From IMG/VR virus record IMGVR_UViG_2711768002_000004: DNA of 39,841 bases. One strand, given 5' to 3'. Made by a program: the position numbers and the translations under genes. Positions 154 through 29,200 of the stretch are shown in pieces. This stretch comes from a virus (lineage: Duplodnaviria > Heunggongvirae > Uroviricota > Caudoviricetes). Numbering within the stretch: the stretch's first letter is position 1; every line of letters starts with the position of its first letter. Under the pieces are notes generated by a model. The model was not told the DNA's origin and searched no databases. It worked only from the letters and a program-made list of their open reading frames with translations.

Positions 154-560
154 GTAAGCGTGCAGCAAGAACCGTATTGACGGGAATGTGTTATTCAGTC
201 GGCAGTGCTACGCGCCAGGGGAGCAGTTCGCCGACCCGGTTTATCGGCCAGTCGGCTATGACGTCAAGGACATAGCGGAGGTAGCTTTCTGGCTCCACTC
301 CGTTCAGTTTGCACGTCCCGATCAGGCTGTACAGCAGCGCTCCCCGCTCTCCTCCATGATCCGAACCGAAGAACAGGTAGTTTTTGCGGCCCAGACTGAC
401 CATCCGCAACGCATTTTCAGCGATGTTATTGTCCGCCTCAGCCCAGCCATCATCTGCATAGTACGTCAGCGCCGGCCACTGGTTCAGGGCGTATGCGAAC
501 GCTTTCGCCAGTTCTGAGTGTCGCGACAGGGTTTTCATCTTTTCACGCAGCCAGCTTTCC
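154..560 (-). mobile_element. IS66-family insertion sequence, right-hand portion (terminal repeat region plus 3' part of tnpC), cut by the N gap
   Basis: tnpC C-terminal reading frame at 191-560; GTAAGCG motif at 154-160, which I recall as the typical IS66-family terminus (from memory, not verified). Confidence 0.65.
191..560 (-). CDS. tnpC: IS66-family transposase TnpC, C-terminal fragment (frame stays open up to the gap)
   Basis: Translation MKTLSRHSELAKAFAYALNQW...DNNIAENALR...GRKNYLFFGSDHGGERGALLYSLIGTCKLNGVEPESYLRYVLDVIADWPINRVGELLPW matches the conserved C-terminus of IS66 TnpC as I recall it; N-terminal ~400 aa absent from the window. Confidence 0.85.
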
Positions 561-682
561 NNNNNNNNNNNNNNNNNNNNNNNNNNNNNNNNNNNNNNNN
601 NNNNNNNNNNNNNNNNNNNNNNNNNNNNNNNNNNNNNNNNNNNNNNNNNNNNNNNNNNNNNNNNNNNNNNNNNNNNNNNNNN
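561..682. other. Assembly gap (run of 122 N)
   Basis: Directly visible. Both the prophage right end and the tnpC N-terminal ~1.2 kb are missing, so true size is probably larger than 122 nt. Confidence 1.
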
Positions 683-690
683 TTAAGCGT

Positions 691-1428
691 TCATTCACTC
701 TCTTTCAAACCAGTTTTAACTGTTTGTGGTTTTGGGTAAGGCTGGACTTTGAATAGCTTTGTGTTAAGGCGTTTTCTGGCTCTCTTGTCCAGAAACCGGA
801 TGTAACGAAACTGACGGAATTTATGAACACTGGCTCTGTCGATATTAGCCCGCAGATGTTCACCTCGCTGTCCTCCTCGTTTGATTGCATTCTTGCAAAT
901 CTCGTGATACCACTCGCCATCAAGTTCATAGAATGTTGTTTCATGACTGCCTACATAATCAAAATTGCTTGCCTGGTACACGACACCAAGACAGCCACAA
1001 CGCTCATCTGCAAACGACTGAACCCACTGCACCTGCGGATAAAGTTGTCTGATTAGTTTGAGCGCGTAACTGATTGCCCTTGATTCGGAGTTTCTCGGCA
1101 TACAGTCATGCAGCCATAACCGGTTAAGCTCCATATATTCGCGGTTCTGCGTGCCAGTTACGACGCGTGCACCATTGTTTGGATTAAGGGCATAACCCCA
1201 TTGCATTACGCCAACCAGCTCCCGTTCTGAAAATATGCCCAGATGAAGGTAGGAATTATTTACGAAACGATGGCTGTAATGTTTATTGACGACGACCAGC
1301 CGGGCCAGCCAGCAACTTATTGTCTCAACCCGTAACTCACGGGAGCCATAACCGACGATATTGTCGTTATAGTGAATAAGTTCAGGCGTGCTGATGATAC
1401 GGGATGTAACTTGCTTTCTGTTCCCCAC
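691..1428 (-). CDS. mom: Mom-like DNA modification protein (start uncertain; GTG at 1428 with AAGGAAA upstream proposed)
   Basis: Long ORF 691-1623 overlaps com in another frame; gene position and the com overlap mirror Mu com-mom. No in-frame ATG downstream of com until far inside the ORF, so an alternative start is inferred. Confidence 0.65.
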
Positions 1429-1582
1429 GACAGGATTTCCTTGTGTATGTGGGGTGCTCTGTGGCGCTCTGAGATGTGATTTGATTGAGGGTTTTACAGC
1501 GCGGACATTTAACTTCCAGATAACTGAAGCTGGCTCGTGCCAGTAGCTTGTTACAATGTCGGCACCGTATGTTTCGATACAT
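1382..1582 (-). CDS. com: Com-like zinc-finger translational activator of mom
   Basis: [34 protein letters not shown]... has the CxxC-(17)-CxxC zinc finger and N-terminal pattern of Mu Com. Start moved to ATG at 1582 (AGGAGG 10 nt upstream); the ORF track start at 1627 is a TTG. Confidence 0.8.
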
Positions 1583-1624
1583 GGCCGCATAACCTCCTGC
1601 TTTGTTGTTGATATCTTTATCACT

Positions 1625-1720
1625 CAATCGATCGACAAAAACGATCGATTTGATTTATTTAATTGATACAACAAATAACACGAAATGTCATTAGCGAAAA
1701 TTTATGAGTTTGATCACTAA
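1625..1720 (-). promoter_or_regulatory. Putative com/mom promoter-regulatory region with clustered GATC (Dam) sites
   Basis: GATC at 1630-1633 and 1643-1646 (13 bp apart) and 1712-1715 in an AT-rich region just upstream of com; in Mu the mom promoter is controlled through upstream Dam sites and OxyR. Confidence 0.4.
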
Positions 1721-1838: not shown

Positions 1839-2132
1839 ATGGACAATCATGTAACGACGAGAAATCGAAAAATGATTGAAAATGCGGAAATCTATAATGA
1901 TTATTTTTCCGATTATTCAGATGCCTGCAAATACAGTTCGAGTGCGGGAGAGTTCATATGCTTCAACTTTTTTATTAAATCTTATGTTTTTCCTCCACAG
2001 CAAGAAGATGGAGGTGTGCCACCTCCTGAAATCACTTTGCACCGTATAGCCTCCGTCTCAATGATGGAGCAACAGGCTAATGAGCTGTATAGCATTCTGG
2101 GAACGATTCTACAAAAGCGTGAATCGGACTAA
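1839..2132 (+). CDS. Hypothetical protein (97 aa), plus strand, divergent from com
   Basis: ORF with AAGAGG 7 nt upstream of ATG; AT-rich; no recognisable motif. Confidence 0.3.
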   Translation: MDNHVTTRNRKMIENAEIYNDYFSDYSDACKYSSSAGEFICFNFFIKSYVFPPQQEDGGVPPPEITLHRIASVSMMEQQANELYSILGTILQKRESD

Positions 2133-2299: not shown

Positions 2300-2554
2300 T
2301 TACATCATGGTACTGTCAGTTCCGGGCTGAGCCGGGTCTGGTTGCTCTGGCTGCGCGTCGGTTTTCGGCTCATTATCAGCATCACTGGCCGCAACTGCTG
2401 GCCCAATAAGTTTTGCCAGCACTTCATCAACGTAAGTGTCGATTTGTGCCTCAAAATCCTTGCGGACCTGCGCTTTCAGCAACTTATTTACTTCACCGGA
2501 ATACAGTGCCTGTTTTACCAGGTCTTCAGTGACGGTGCCTTTAATTTCTGGCAT
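2300..2554 (-). CDS. Hypothetical protein (84 aa), acidic/Pro-rich C-terminus
   Basis: ORF with strong AAGGAGG Shine-Dalgarno upstream of ATG at 2554; part of the cargo locus between gin and com. Confidence 0.55.
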   Translation of the reverse strand: MPEIKGTVTEDLVKQALYSGEVNKLLKAQVRKDFEAQIDTYVDEVLAKLIGPAVAASDADNEPKTDAQPEQPDPAQPGTDSTMM

Positions 2555-2589
2555 GTATATCCTCCTTATGCGGGAATAAAGCCCTGCAA

Positions 2590-2772
2590 TCAGGGCTGGG
2601 TCGGGTCTTTTGGGAGCGGAGTTACCTGCGCTGTTTTACTGAGTTTTTCAGCTGCTGCGTCCTCAATTTTGCGGCGAACATAATTTCTGATGGCCTTATA
2701 ACCACCACTCACCAGATATAACGCACATACTGCCGTGCAGAAATACAATAAAATAAGCTGTAAAAATGTCAT
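2590..2772 (-). CDS. Small membrane protein (60 aa, one predicted TM helix)
   Basis: MTFLQLILLYFCTAVCALYLVSGGYKAIRNYVRRK...; start moved to ATG at 2772 preceded by GGGAGGG. Confidence 0.55.
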   Translation of the reverse strand: MTFLQLILLYFCTAVCALYLVSGGYKAIRNYVRRKIEDAAAEKLSKTAQVTPLPKDPTQP

Positions 2773-2787
2773 TATCCCTCCCAATTA

Positions 2788-2814
2788 TTGACATGGTGTT
2801 GACACCGGTAATAT
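2788..2814 (+). promoter_or_regulatory. Candidate sigma70-like promoter / direct TTGACA repeat
   Basis: TTGACA at 2788-2793 and 2799-2804, TAATAT at 2809-2814 (15-bp spacer from the first hexamer). Suboptimal spacing; could equally be a regulator binding site. Confidence 0.3.
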
Positions 2815-2868
2815 CTGTTAGGTAAAAAGGTGCACTGCATTTTTTGCTTTGGATATAACGATCTTTTT

Positions 2869-2910
2869 GCCGCCGGTTTCTTGTTTTCCCTTACCGGCGG
2901 CATTTTTTTA
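2869..2910 (+). terminator. Rho-independent terminator (9-bp GC stem, 15-nt loop, 7-U tail on plus strand)
   Basis: GCCGCCGGT...ACCGGCGGC followed by ATTTTTTT; lies 7 bp beyond the esterase stop. On the minus strand the hairpin is followed by AAAAAG, so only plus-strand termination looks canonical. Confidence 0.6.
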
Positions 2911-2916
2911 TCCTGC

Positions 2917-4971
2917 TTACGCGTTATTCACTTCCACCACGATACTGTCAATCAGTACCGGGTAAGTCGCATTTTTAGTGATATCGGTCACGCGCAACTT
3001 GTCTGCCGTAAACGTGCCGACCGGAGACTGCGACAGCATGAATGGTGTCCCGTCCTTACCATCAATGACCGGCGTCACCTCAATACTGTTGTTACCGGCA
3101 AAACGGAAGCCCAGCGTATGCCATTCGTTATTAAATGCGCCGAATGACCCCAGCTTCGTGTTCTGCGCCGTGTTTCCTTTGTGATACATCACGTTAAGGT
3201 CTGTGGCATCGCTCTGTACGTAGAACGATGCCAGCAGGTTATGACCGGCATTTCCTTCCAGAGTAACCCCTTGCGGCAGGGCAGAAACCGGCCAGTACAG
3301 CGCCAGTGCGTACTGATTAGCCGTAAGCGCGCCATCGAGTTTAAAACGACAACTGACAAGACCACCTTTACCCAGCAGGTCCGCACCATTACCAGCATCA
3401 TGCTCAAGGTACCAGGGGGCTCTTCCTGTTTCCTTGGTCAGTTTCATTGCCTTACCCCCGCTGGCTCCGGCATCATCCACGATTTGAGCCTTGCCACCTC
3501 CGGCAGCCCAACCCTGTGGTGTCAACCGTCCTTCAGACTCAGATGCCCGGTAAGCAAATAGCGTACTCATCGTCGTGGTGTCTGCGGGTGGCGTGGACGG
3601 TTTTGATGGTGTATCAGGTGACGGCTTCTCATCCGGTGGTGTCACGGTCTGCCCACGCATCAGTTCAGCCGTGCGCCCTGCATGGAGCATAATAGCTGAG
3701 GCCAGACGGTCTGAAATGACGCCCCTGCGTGCCCATGAGCTGAAATGGCTGTCACGCTGTGTCGAAACAAAACTGCCCTGGGTTCGGGATGCTGCACCGT
3801 AATACCCGACAGCCACAATATCCGGGTCTTCCGCCGGAGCATTCGTTGGCGTGCTCTGTCCATTCTCATCCGTCAGGAACGGTACAAAGAAAATTTTCTG
3901 TGCTTCCTTGCCTTTGTAGCCACCGTATACTGCCTCATATTTATCGGTGCCAGCGTTTTTCCAGTAATACGTGGTATCACCGCAAATCCACGGCACCGTG
4001 GTGGCATTTCCACTCACGCACTGCGCAGCAAGCGGAGCCAGGTCAGTTCTGAACTGCTGAACCATGGCCGTGAATAAACTATTATGCTGCTGGCTTCCTG
4101 AGGCAAGGTCTGCCTCTCCCTGCATCCAGACCACAGCCAGAAGTTTGTTTTTCGGGTTTTTCGCCAGCGCGACTTTGGTGCGGCTTACCAGGTCCTGATA
4201 CAGAGGTTTACCGGCCCCCCAGCGTGAAGAATCAGCGGAAGCACCGCTGGCCTCACTGAATGAGCCGTCGGCTCCAGTGGTGAATGCTGACCCGCCACGA
4301 CAACAGGGCACCAGAAGTATCCCGGCATTCTGTGGGATATAGGGAAGCAGTTTTTTGGCAATATGCAACCCCTGACCGACAGTCCCGTACTGGCCTTTTG
4401 CCAGATCAGCTTTCGGGTGGTTTATCCCGCTCATATCCTGAACATCATGCAGGCAGTGGTCTGCCGGAATGATGTCGTTGTATGTACACGACGTACCGTT
4501 GGGCGTTACCGTACTGCGGCGTGCCAGTTGCTTAATGCGTGGGTCCGGGCGGTCAAACGAATCCGGTAACGGCAGCCCCTCGCCGTAGGCCATGCCATTT
4601 GACTGACCCGCGAGAATGACAACAAAGTAATATTCCGGCTCTGAACTGCTGCCATTCGTGCTACCGGAAGGCCCGGCGTTATCCGGTGCATTCCAGTCGG
4701 AGGGCGTGAGCGTTCCGGCCACGTCAGATGTGATTGGAATGATGCCAGTCACGCCTGAACTGGTGATTTCTGCACTGGGATTACCGGATACCGGCATTAC
4801 CCATAATGGCTCTTTCGTGCTGAAGCGGATCACGCAGTCTGCGAAGGTGATCCCCCCTTTATTACCCGAAGGGCGGAAAGGGCTTTCAATAAATGCCACC
4901 GTGCCACCGGCAACCTTGACTGAAAACTCTCCGGGCATGGCGGAGAGCATTTTCCACTTGGAGTCTGACAT
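2917..4971 (-). CDS. Large cargo protein (684 aa) with SGNH / sialate-O-acetylesterase-like (DUF303-type) esterase motifs; putative carbohydrate O-acetyl esterase
   Basis: Motifs YFVVILAGQSNGMAYGEG (GQSN block) and AVVWMQGEAD (QGE block) recalled as typical of the family; Ser/Thr/Pro-rich linker and Gly-rich C-terminal ~250 aa. Sits where Mu has no gene (between gin and com). Confidence 0.6.
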   Translation of the reverse strand: MSDSKWKMLSAMPGEFSVKVAGGTVAFIESPFRPSGNKGGITFADCVIRFSTKEPLWVMPVSGNPSAEITSSGVTGIIPITSDVAGTLTPSDWNAPDNAGPSGSTNGSSSEPEYYFVVILAGQSNGMAYGEGLPLPDSFDRPDPRIKQLARRSTVTPNGTSCTYNDIIPADHCLHDVQDMSGINHPKADLAKGQYGTVGQGLHIAKKLLPYIPQNAGILLVPCCRGGSAFTTGADGSFSEASGASADSSRWGAGKPLYQDLVSRTKVALAKNPKNKLLAVVWMQGEADLASGSQQHNSLFTAMVQQFRTDLAPLAAQCVSGNATTVPWICGDTTYYWKNAGTDKYEAVYGGYKGKEAQKIFFVPFLTDENGQSTPTNAPAEDPDIVAVGYYGAASRTQGSFVSTQRDSHFSSWARRGVISDRLASAIMLHAGRTAELMRGQTVTPPDEKPSPDTPSKPSTPPADTTTMSTLFAYRASESEGRLTPQGWAAGGGKAQIVDDAGASGGKAMKLTKETGRAPWYLEHDAGNGADLLGKGGLVSCRFKLDGALTANQYALALYWPVSALPQGVTLEGNAGHNLLASFYVQSDATDLNVMYHKGNTAQNTKLGSFGAFNNEWHTLGFRFAGNNSIEVTPVIDGKDGTPFMLSQSPVGTFTADKLRVTDITKNATYPVLIDSIVVEVNNA

Positions 4972-5056
4972 CGTCTTTTCTGCCTGTTTCTGAATTAAAC
5001 AGAGTCAGAATAGCGACCGCTGAAAAATATGTGTTTTGCGGAAATTCAAAAAAGCG

Positions 5057-5629
5057 TCACGGTACTTTTGGTGACGGAGCTGGTGAGGCAGGAAAATAAC
5101 GATAAAGGGTGGAAAGGCCAATATCAAATATCAGTGCGATTTGTTTACGGGACTCGCCATTAGCCAGCAAACGGGCGATTTGCTCCCGCTCTTTCTCTGT
5201 CAGTTTCTGAGGTCTGCCGCCATGACGCCCCTGAGCACGGGCAGCAGCAAGACCCGCGCGTGTACGTTCAATAATGAGTTCCCGCTCCATTTCCGCCAGC
5301 GCGCCCATTATATGGAAAAAGAAACGTCCCATGGGAGTGGATGTATCAATATTGTCCGTAATGCTGCGGAAGTTAACGCCGCGTTGCCGGAGTTCTTCTG
5401 TTAAAAGGACAAGGTGCTGCATACTGCGTCCAAGGCGATCCAGTTTCCAGACCAGCAGGGTATCCCCTGGCCGGAGTCGCTTTAATGCGCGTTTAAGTCC
5501 GGGACGCTCCCTTGTCTTACCGCTTATTCTGTCTTCGAAAAACAGCTCACATCCTGCACATTCCAGCGCATTTCTTTGTAGCGCCGTATTCTGGTCATTT
5601 GTTGACACCCTGATATACCCAATCAGCAT
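5057..5629 (-). CDS. gin: Serine recombinase DNA invertase (Gin/Hin/Pin/Cin family)
   Basis: MLIGYIRVSTNDQNTALQ...VWKLDRLGRSMQHL...MGRFFFHIMGALAEMERELIIERT...STLYRYF: catalytic Ser region and C-terminal HTH of the Gin family; adjacent to the invertible tail-fibre segment. Confidence 0.9.
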   Translation of the reverse strand: MLIGYIRVSTNDQNTALQRNALECAGCELFFEDRISGKTRERPGLKRALKRLRPGDTLLVWKLDRLGRSMQHLVLLTEELRQRGVNFRSITDNIDTSTPMGRFFFHIMGALAEMERELIIERTRAGLAAARAQGRHGGRPQKLTEKEREQIARLLANGESRKQIALIFDIGLSTLYRYFPASPAPSPKVP

Positions 5630-29129: not shown

Positions 29130-29200
29130 TGTTACGCTGTCTCATGGTGTTCTCTGAGTCAGCGTAACCGTGAGGAAAAGGGGGCAGGATTTGCGGAATA

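Follow-up and report, generated by a model that had tools for sequence, protein, structure and literature searches.

A com-mom operon, very probably an intact ortholog of that of phage Mu, at the right end of a Mu-like prophage of Escherichia coli

Background

Mom is a GNAT-fold enzyme, and the modification that it introduces shields phage DNA from many restriction enzymes. The Mom protein of phage Mu transfers glycine from Gly-tRNA(Gly) to the N6 of adenine in duplex DNA, after which a rearrangement gives the carbamoylmethyl adduct (PMC13219725, 2026). In the numbering of its 241-amino-acid (aa) annotation, residues R111, S124 and R151 are essential and D149, H58, Y59, W48, Y159 and W181 are important, a helix-turn-helix (HTH)-like insertion is required for activity, and loss of the first 10 residues is tolerated (PMC13219725). 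Translation of Mu mom starts at a GUG located inside a translation-inhibition stem, and the motif CC(N)2-3GAG was obtained in vitro for the binding of Com by systematic evolution of ligands by exponential enrichment (SELEX) (PMC6483171). The mom promoter of Mu is governed by Dam and OxyR (PMC3378877). Here, we describe the com-mom region of a 39,841-nucleotide (nt) stretch of viral DNA, IMG/VR record IMGVR_UViG_2711768002_000004 (Caudoviricetes), the whole of which is hereafter called the window, and in which a reading of the letters alone (the sequence-only reading) had placed a com-mom module preceded by a GATC cluster. This region is very probably an intact ortholog of the Mu com-mom operon, and it occupies the right end of a complete Mu-like prophage of Escherichia coli as its last operon.

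Results

Comparison with the Mu operon

The gene order is that of Mu (Mup54 and Mup55; NC_000929), where the two genes likewise form the last operon before the right end, and both the Com-like zinc-finger gene and the overlapping Mom-like gene named by the sequence-only reading were verified by database search and alignment. Thus, (i) predicted Mom matches the Pfam family Mom (PF25680) over profile positions 1-202 of 202 (E = 7.8e-78; 261.2 bits for a cut-off of 27.1), aligns with Mu Mom from end to end at 78% identity (BLASTP, 5e-140), and matches the crystal structure of Mu Mom, entered as 'Methylcarbamoylase mom' (PDB 8BV8), with an E value of 2.4e-123, (ii) Com matches Zn_ribbon_Com (PF10122; E = 7.5e-13; 48.2 bits for a cut-off of 22.9), is 45% identical to Mu Com, and keeps the four zinc cysteines (Cys7, 10, 26 and 29, corresponding to Mu Cys6, 9, 26 and 29), the PDB search with Com giving zero matches, and (iii) the PHROGs matches concur on both proteins, that of Com being 'gpCom control of modification'. 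The Pfam matches of Mom and Com and the PDB match of Mom are far beyond chance. All nine residues reported for Mu Mom are kept (W40, H50, Y51, R103, S116, D141, R143, Y151 and W173, for Mu W48, H58, Y59, R111, S124, D149, R151, Y159 and W181), and the HTH-like insertion (Mu residues about 175-209) is present and ungapped, with 28 of 35 positions identical. On account of the 78% identity and the conservation of all residues reported as important, we infer that the window Mom would make N6-carbamoylmethyl-adenine as Mu Mom does.

The likeness extends to the arrangement of the control elements (Table 1). As in Mu, a CCCAC/GUGGG stem surrounds the ribosome-binding site and has the mom GUG in its 3' arm, a Com hairpin with a CC-N3-GAG loop stands directly 5' of this stem, and an inverted repeat containing CGATCG is found upstream; com and mom overlap by 47 nt (1382..1428), in different frames, against 50 nt in Mu. 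On the other hand, the GATC cluster comprises two sites in the window and three in Mu, the loop of the stem is 20 nt long instead of about 10, the Com hairpin of the window, unlike that of Mu, carries a C.A mismatch, and Mom has a 12-aa C-terminal extension relative to Mu Mom. Moreover, gin directly adjoins the mom promoter in Mu, whereas a cargo of ~3.4 kb separates the invertase gene from com in the window.

Table 1. Coordinates of the genes and of the sequence elements in the com-mom region of the window
Feature	Position	Strand	Remarks
mom coding sequence	691..1428	-	245 aa; GTG start 1428-1426; TGA stop 693-691
com coding sequence	1382..1582	-	66 aa; ATG start; zinc-ribbon translational activator
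com Shine-Dalgarno AGGAGG	1593..1598	-	10 nt before ATG 1582; read from sequence
Predicted Com-binding hairpin GCGC-CACAGA-GCAC	1454..1467	-	Loop with CC-N3-GAG; second stem pair is a C.A mismatch
Translation-inhibition stem-loop CCCCAC (1454-1449)/GUGGGG (1428-1423)	1423..1454	-	Encloses mom Shine-Dalgarno AAGGAAA (1442-1436); GUG in 3' arm
Perfect inverted repeat AATCGATCG-N7-CGATCGATT	1626..1650		9 bp; carries GATC 1643 and GATC 1630
OxyR-like site	1631..1667		13/20 specified positions of ATAGnTnnnAnCTAT-N7-ATAGnTnnnAnCTAT
Third GATC	1712..1715		Outside the O157-type shared block; in the spacer of a further promoter-like match, TTTAAA-17-TAAATT (1727-1699)
Candidate sigma-70 promoter ATGACA-17-TATCAA	1663..1691	-	Inferred; upstream of the GATC repeat

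Copies in public genomes

Sequence 100% identical over 1618 nt around com-mom was found in at least 13 complete E. coli genomes, and 233 of 5,426 genomes contained some match to the region. In the genomes carrying the identical DNA, the prophage gene set includes transposase, AAA ATPase, Gam, Mor/C activator, lysis, head, tail and invertase genes; the insertion sites vary between strains, and the map of open reading frames (ORFs) of the window is collinear with complete Mu-like prophages of E. coli. At the identical loci, the Prokaryotic Genome Annotation Pipeline (PGAP) called the same two coding sequences, of 738 nt (mom) and 201 nt (com), with the same boundaries, and the RefSeq identifiers of the identical Com and Mom proteins are WP_014334043.1 and WP_000528246.1, respectively. 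The RefSeq product names at these loci begin with 'Com family' for the first and, for the second, read 'Mom family adenine methylcarbamoylation protein' or, in the newest records, 'tRNA(Gly)-dependent adenine aminoacyltransferase Mom'. At two loci (L002 and L003), PGAP labels Com a 'Com family DNA-binding transcriptional regulator'; by contrast, the Com protein characterised in Mu binds RNA and activates translation. The com-mom module is already known, its identical sequence is already annotated in public genomes, and the departure from Mu is confined to the promoter region.

Start codons of com and mom

The proposal that mom has no usable ATG, and hence a non-ATG or structured start, agrees with the position of the start codon, a GTG at 1428 that lies in the CCCCAC/GUGGGG stem and is aligned with Mu. 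Within a long ORF of 310 aa (691..1623, minus strand), homology to Mom begins at this GTG, which coincides exactly, in the alignment, with the first codon of the 231-aa Mu Mom (aligned starts MGNRKQ and MGKEKK), is preceded by AAGGAAA at a spacing of 7 nt, and is also the start called by PGAP. A single in-frame ATG is present upstream (1590), 2 nt past the com Shine-Dalgarno sequence, and the next one is Mom codon 75. The 65 codons before GTG 1428 correspond to an alternative frame of com and are not conserved open in relatives. Two longer products were rejected, namely the entire 310-aa ORF, as homology starts at GTG 1428 and the upstream frame is not kept in relatives, and the 299-aa product from ATG 1590, as this ATG is only 2 nt from the Shine-Dalgarno sequence and its frame is unconserved. 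The ATG at 1588-1590 opens a frame of 299 codons running through com into mom, which in the O157-type lineage is interrupted by a stop 27 codons upstream of the GTG; because the open frame is unconserved in that lineage, it is probably incidental. Mu, too, is known to begin mom at a GUG within a stem, so this is no peculiarity of the window copy. As for com, the mechanical ORF call begins at TTG 1627 and the com ATG is at 1582; its Shine-Dalgarno sequence is unchanged across family members with the exception of L046 (AGAAGG).

RNA elements at the com-mom junction

Mom loci were gathered from 19 species genomes and 80 viral contigs, and 12 distinct com-mom junctions were aligned. The com-containing enterobacterial loci share a common junction layout. 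The Mu target of Com, AUGC-CUGCGA-GCAU, is positionally homologous to the hairpin at 1454..1467 (PMC6483171). The loop of the window hairpin fits the SELEX motif, its CC-N3-GAG is kept in the relatives, and a CC(N)2-3GAG hairpin is thereby found directly 5' of the stem holding the mom start. All four pairs of the hairpin show compensatory changes over the 12 relatives, with 93.8% of cells paired and with the stem variants AUGC/GCAU, GCAC/GUGC, GCGU/ACGC and GUGC/GCAU; none of 500 shuffles reached the observed covariation score, and the slid-partner controls collapsed. The C.A mismatch at the second pair is common to the window copy and its close relatives, and one variant (L030), with GUGC and U-A at this pair, has a perfect stem.

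The inhibition stem appears in both the minimum-free-energy and the centroid fold (RNAfold), as it does for Mu, and its sequence is conserved in 11 of the 12 aligned relatives, the exception being an alignment shift. This invariance of the main stem is attributable to its being double-coding, and its outer pair covaries, being C-G in the window and U-A in Mu. In all, the predicted junction structure is shown by homology and covariation. A search of the junction and leader against Rfam returned no family, the sole match being a chance one to IS102 (E = 0.81).

The two helices share one nucleotide, as C1454 closes both the Com hairpin and the inhibition stem, its partners being 1467 and 1423, respectively. 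Over the relatives, the combination 1467-1454-1423 is G-C-G in seven cases and A-U-A in three, with two wobble intermediates. Because C1454 covaries with its partners in both helices, these would compete for it, which suggests a mutually exclusive pairing switch behind Com activation. Such a competition fits the model in which Com binding to the hairpin loosens the stem, with few independent changes behind it.

GATC sites and the OxyR-like element

GATC is present at 1630-1633, 1643-1646 and 1712-1715, precisely at the positions given by the sequence-only reading, and nowhere else between 362 and 2859. Only the first two of these sites have Mu homologs: those at 1630 and 1643 correspond to Mu GATC sites 2 and 3, in an inverted repeat whose Mu counterpart is AATCGATC-N9-GATCGATT, whereas the site at 1712 is not homologous to Mu site 1, which is not conserved in the window. 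GATC 1712 is also absent from a sister lineage, and it probably lies outside the conserved control element. The inverted repeat is invariant in the window-type, O157-type and CI5-type prophages, while the adjoining bases vary, and GATC pairs or triplets similar to it precede com in most enterobacterial com-mom loci. As to density, the window has fewer GATC sites than expected (122 against 153), and their clustering is not significant, as four neighbouring pairs lie no more than 13 nt apart when 4.7 would be expected. The significance of the GATC pair therefore derives from its position and homology, the repeat being conserved with Mu and many relatives, and not from density.

The window was also scanned with the OxyR consensus, ATAGnTnnnAnCTAT-N7-ATAGnTnnnAnCTAT. 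The score of the site at the GATC pair equals that of the best match over the three GATC sites of Mu, and only three sites in the window score 13 or more. The GATC sites that correspond to Mu sites 2 and 3 thus form a cluster of two within an OxyR-like region upstream of com. The Dam-dependent control proposed from the GATC cluster is plausible for com-mom, resting on these two sites within an OxyR-like element that scores as that of Mu.

Departures from Mu and the position of the promoter

Several points weigh against reading the locus as an operon that is of the Mu type in every part. The com and mom genes are known here from sequence, as intact frames. With regard to the folding of the junction RNA, to which the sequence-only reading had looked, the stem was recovered but the folding energies are no better than those of shuffled sequence (z from -0.5 to -1.1; RNAfold), such energies being expected for such short stems and hence uninformative. 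Likewise, the homologous 4-bp Com hairpin, the stem of which has the C.A mismatch, is not predicted by RNAfold. In the double-coding main stem, the outer pair alone offers covariation evidence, and the structure draws its support from homology and from covariation among relatives. Upstream of com, the Mu C-binding sequence GATTATGCCCCAATAACC has no match within 3 mismatches anywhere in the window, there is neither a Mu-like T6 tract nor a promoter with a 19-bp spacer downstream of the repeat, and no part of the leader varies more than the stretch right after the repeat, where the -10 element would be located by analogy with the more distant relatives L051-L053. The control of transcription cannot be shown to be Mu-like, and stable lysogeny would be difficult to square with a reasonably good constitutive promoter in front of a toxic gene.

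Because the Mu-type C-activator site is missing, transcriptional control cannot be simply copied from Mu. The ~30 nt holding the C site in Mu have no counterpart in the alignment of the window, the TAAGAT -10 element of Mu has none in the window leader, and the inverted repeat and the com ATG are only 43 nt apart, the corresponding distance in Mu being about 70. Given this distance and the absence of the Mu C-binding sequence, the GATC operator would have to overlap or adjoin the core promoter, and not lie upstream of an activator site. Since the C homolog of the prophage is only 40% identical to Mu C, a different C-type site is conceivable.

It is a serious possibility, if short of probable, that transcription has been rewired, such that a sigma-70 promoter, ATGACA-17-TATCAA (1691-1663), would lie upstream of the repeat, the OxyR-like Dam-sensitive operator, at about -12 to +25, would be a classical repressor site or roadblock, and C-dependence would be reduced or would come from a weak TTTCGCTAA motif (1699-1691). 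This promoter candidate is the only promoter-like element kept with a fixed spacing of 17 nt in the window-type, CI5-type and O157-type lineages, homology to the O157-type and Stx-phage-borne Mu-like elements ends exactly at 1691, and the room downstream of the repeat is too small for a Mu-type promoter. Its rough weight-matrix score is 6.3 bits, against 1.15 for Mu Pmom, but several AT-rich intergenic candidates, from which it is indistinguishable, score above it; furthermore, its -10 lacks the conserved final T and the TTTCGCTAA motif is missing in the O157-type lineage. The good TATACT or TATAGT that L051-L053 possess just downstream of the GATC pair argues for a promoter at that place instead, and with a promoter that did not depend on C, a toxic gene would be expressed in lysogens. 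The pattern TTnCGCnAA-N22-TW is also found before the lysis and esterase genes, with 3 matches against 0.82 expected, although this enrichment is weak, being matched by 4 of 100 shuffles. From the sequence, the promoter position cannot be placed.

Two further motifs were considered in this context. CCGCAAA, which is enriched (21 occurrences against 9.2 expected) and found before the lysis, head-protease and esterase genes, was not retained as a shared late-promoter motif and is a weak lead only, as its version before com is degenerate and is missing in the O157-type lineage; the -10 positions that it implies give implausibly short leaders for two genes. The window has a single TTAT-N6-ATAA palindrome, TTATGCGGGAATAA at 2566-2579, which is similar to the core of the Mu C site, TTATGCCCCAATAA. 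It was rejected as a C site because it lies between DUF1378 and DUF826 at 12 nt from the DUF826 start, which is too close, and because 24 of 100 shuffles have such a palindrome.

We tentatively propose, with limited confidence, that the mom operon of this E. coli prophage lineage may have lost the Mu layout of an upstream operator plus a C site, so that the Dam-sensitive OxyR-like repeat would lie directly on the core promoter or early leader, with late timing achieved through another C-type site or through methylation state and silencing alone.

A decaying prophage remnant, in which the intact com and mom frames would no longer be expressed or regulated and the GATC repeat would be a functionless relic, is improbable. 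While the loss of the Mu C-binding sequence, the foreign cargo between the invertase gene and com, and the mismatch in the Com hairpin would all be in keeping with decay, every critical Mom residue is kept, both frames are intact across the 47-nt double-coding overlap, the Mu gene set of the prophage is complete, and the 100% identical sequence is carried by at least 13 unrelated E. coli genomes. Furthermore, diverged lineages share the repeat, the ribosome-binding sites of com and mom and the stem without change while the flanking DNA is variable, which argues for purifying selection. Finally, it is very hard to believe that the 1626-1650 repeat serves as an intrinsic terminator of plus-strand transcripts that come into the prophage from the flanking DNA, and not as a methylation-sensitive operator, for although a plus-strand terminator scan lists it (9-bp stem, 7-nt loop, tail TGATTTATTT), only 4 of the 9 stem pairs are G-C, the tail is interrupted, the scan gives 3 such matches against 1.8 expected by chance, no plus-strand gene ends at the repeat, and its two GATC-bearing CGATCG units are exactly as in Mu, where they are the Dam/OxyR element.

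Prophage surroundings

The RefSeq E. coli prophage copies are identical in sequence to the window, whose right end, however, abuts a fragment of an IS66-family transposase and not dcyD. A run of 122 N (window 561-682) begins 9 nt past the mom stop codon, and its length is about the distance from mom to the right end in the identical E. coli prophages (about 124 nt in L003), for which reason we take it to be masked right-end attachment sequence. Beyond this run, window 191-538 encodes the C-terminal part of the IS66-family transposase (Pfam DDE_Tnp_IS66 and IS66_C), which suggests that the prophage of the window DNA is inserted into an IS66 element.

On the other side of com, the cargo (window 2300-4971), which follows the invertase gene (5057-5629), encodes a 684-aa protein that combines a sialate O-acetylesterase (SASA) domain with DUF6645, followed by DUF1378 and next by DUF826, a set typical of lambdoid and Stx prophages. 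The motif TTCCGCAAA-N22-TA stands before the cargo at 5011-5043, and the same motif precedes the prophage lysis gene (29166-29198), so the cargo may be expressed as a late gene. An 86-aa ORF (1872-2132, plus strand), divergent from com, has no Pfam or PHROG match; in sister prophages its slot is occupied by a frameshifted 458-nt gene (O157 strain 2010C-3347) or by a 303-nt gene (strain CI5), and it looks like a variable cassette position.

com-less and distant mom loci

In contrast to the window, a group of mom genes from Serratia and Yersinia phages (L015-L018, L021 and L072-L105), the Mom proteins of which are 66-70% identical to that of the window, have no com, no Com hairpin and no GUGGG stem, and possess instead a different conserved leader of ~110 nt before mom, which is structured-looking and belongs to no Rfam family. 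A tRNA-Gly(UCC) gene is located 110-200 nt upstream of mom, on the same strand, in 5 of 34 com-less viral mom loci, and in Serratia L017 a Met-Leu-Gly(UCC) tRNA cluster lies just downstream of mom; none of the com-containing loci collected has a tRNA-Gly gene. As Gly-tRNA(Gly) serves Mom as co-substrate, there may be a functional side to this linkage; a search of the 2026 Mom paper by terms turned up nothing on it (PMC13219725).

More distant com-mom modules (L009 and L020, from Symbiopectobacterium and Pantoea persica, and L012-L014, L070 and L023) retain com together with a small hairpin that has a C...GA loop, and hide the mom ribosome-binding site by other means, for example in a 7-bp stem, GUCUCCG/CGGAGAC, where the start is AUG. 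In the non-enterobacterial com-mom modules, GATC is mostly lacking upstream of com.

Discussion

If the locus is, as we consider very probable, an intact ortholog of the Mu operon, its expression would proceed along the following lines. Transcription would probably be controlled through the methylation, by Dam, of both GATC sites of the 1626-1650 repeat, within the OxyR-like site. Translation of com, from ATG 1582, would come first, that of mom, from GUG 1428, being held back by the CCCCAC/GUGGGG stem-loop, in which the ribosome-binding site and the start codon are predicted to be closed. By analogy with Mu, Com would then bind the adjacent hairpin (1467-1454) and open the stem. The resulting Mom would carry out glycyl transfer leading to N6-carbamoylmethyl-adenine, and the phage DNA would thereby be protected from many restriction enzymes.

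The system is a textbook one and its exact sequence was already annotated, so it brings little new biology. Its modest value lies, first, in a naturally occurring version of the mom control region without the C-binding site of Mu and, second, in a comparative set of junctions that supports the model of Com hairpin and inhibitory stem through covariation. For E. coli phages, the presence of the module would mark the prophage as able to hypermodify adenines and to evade many restriction systems, which bears on their host range.

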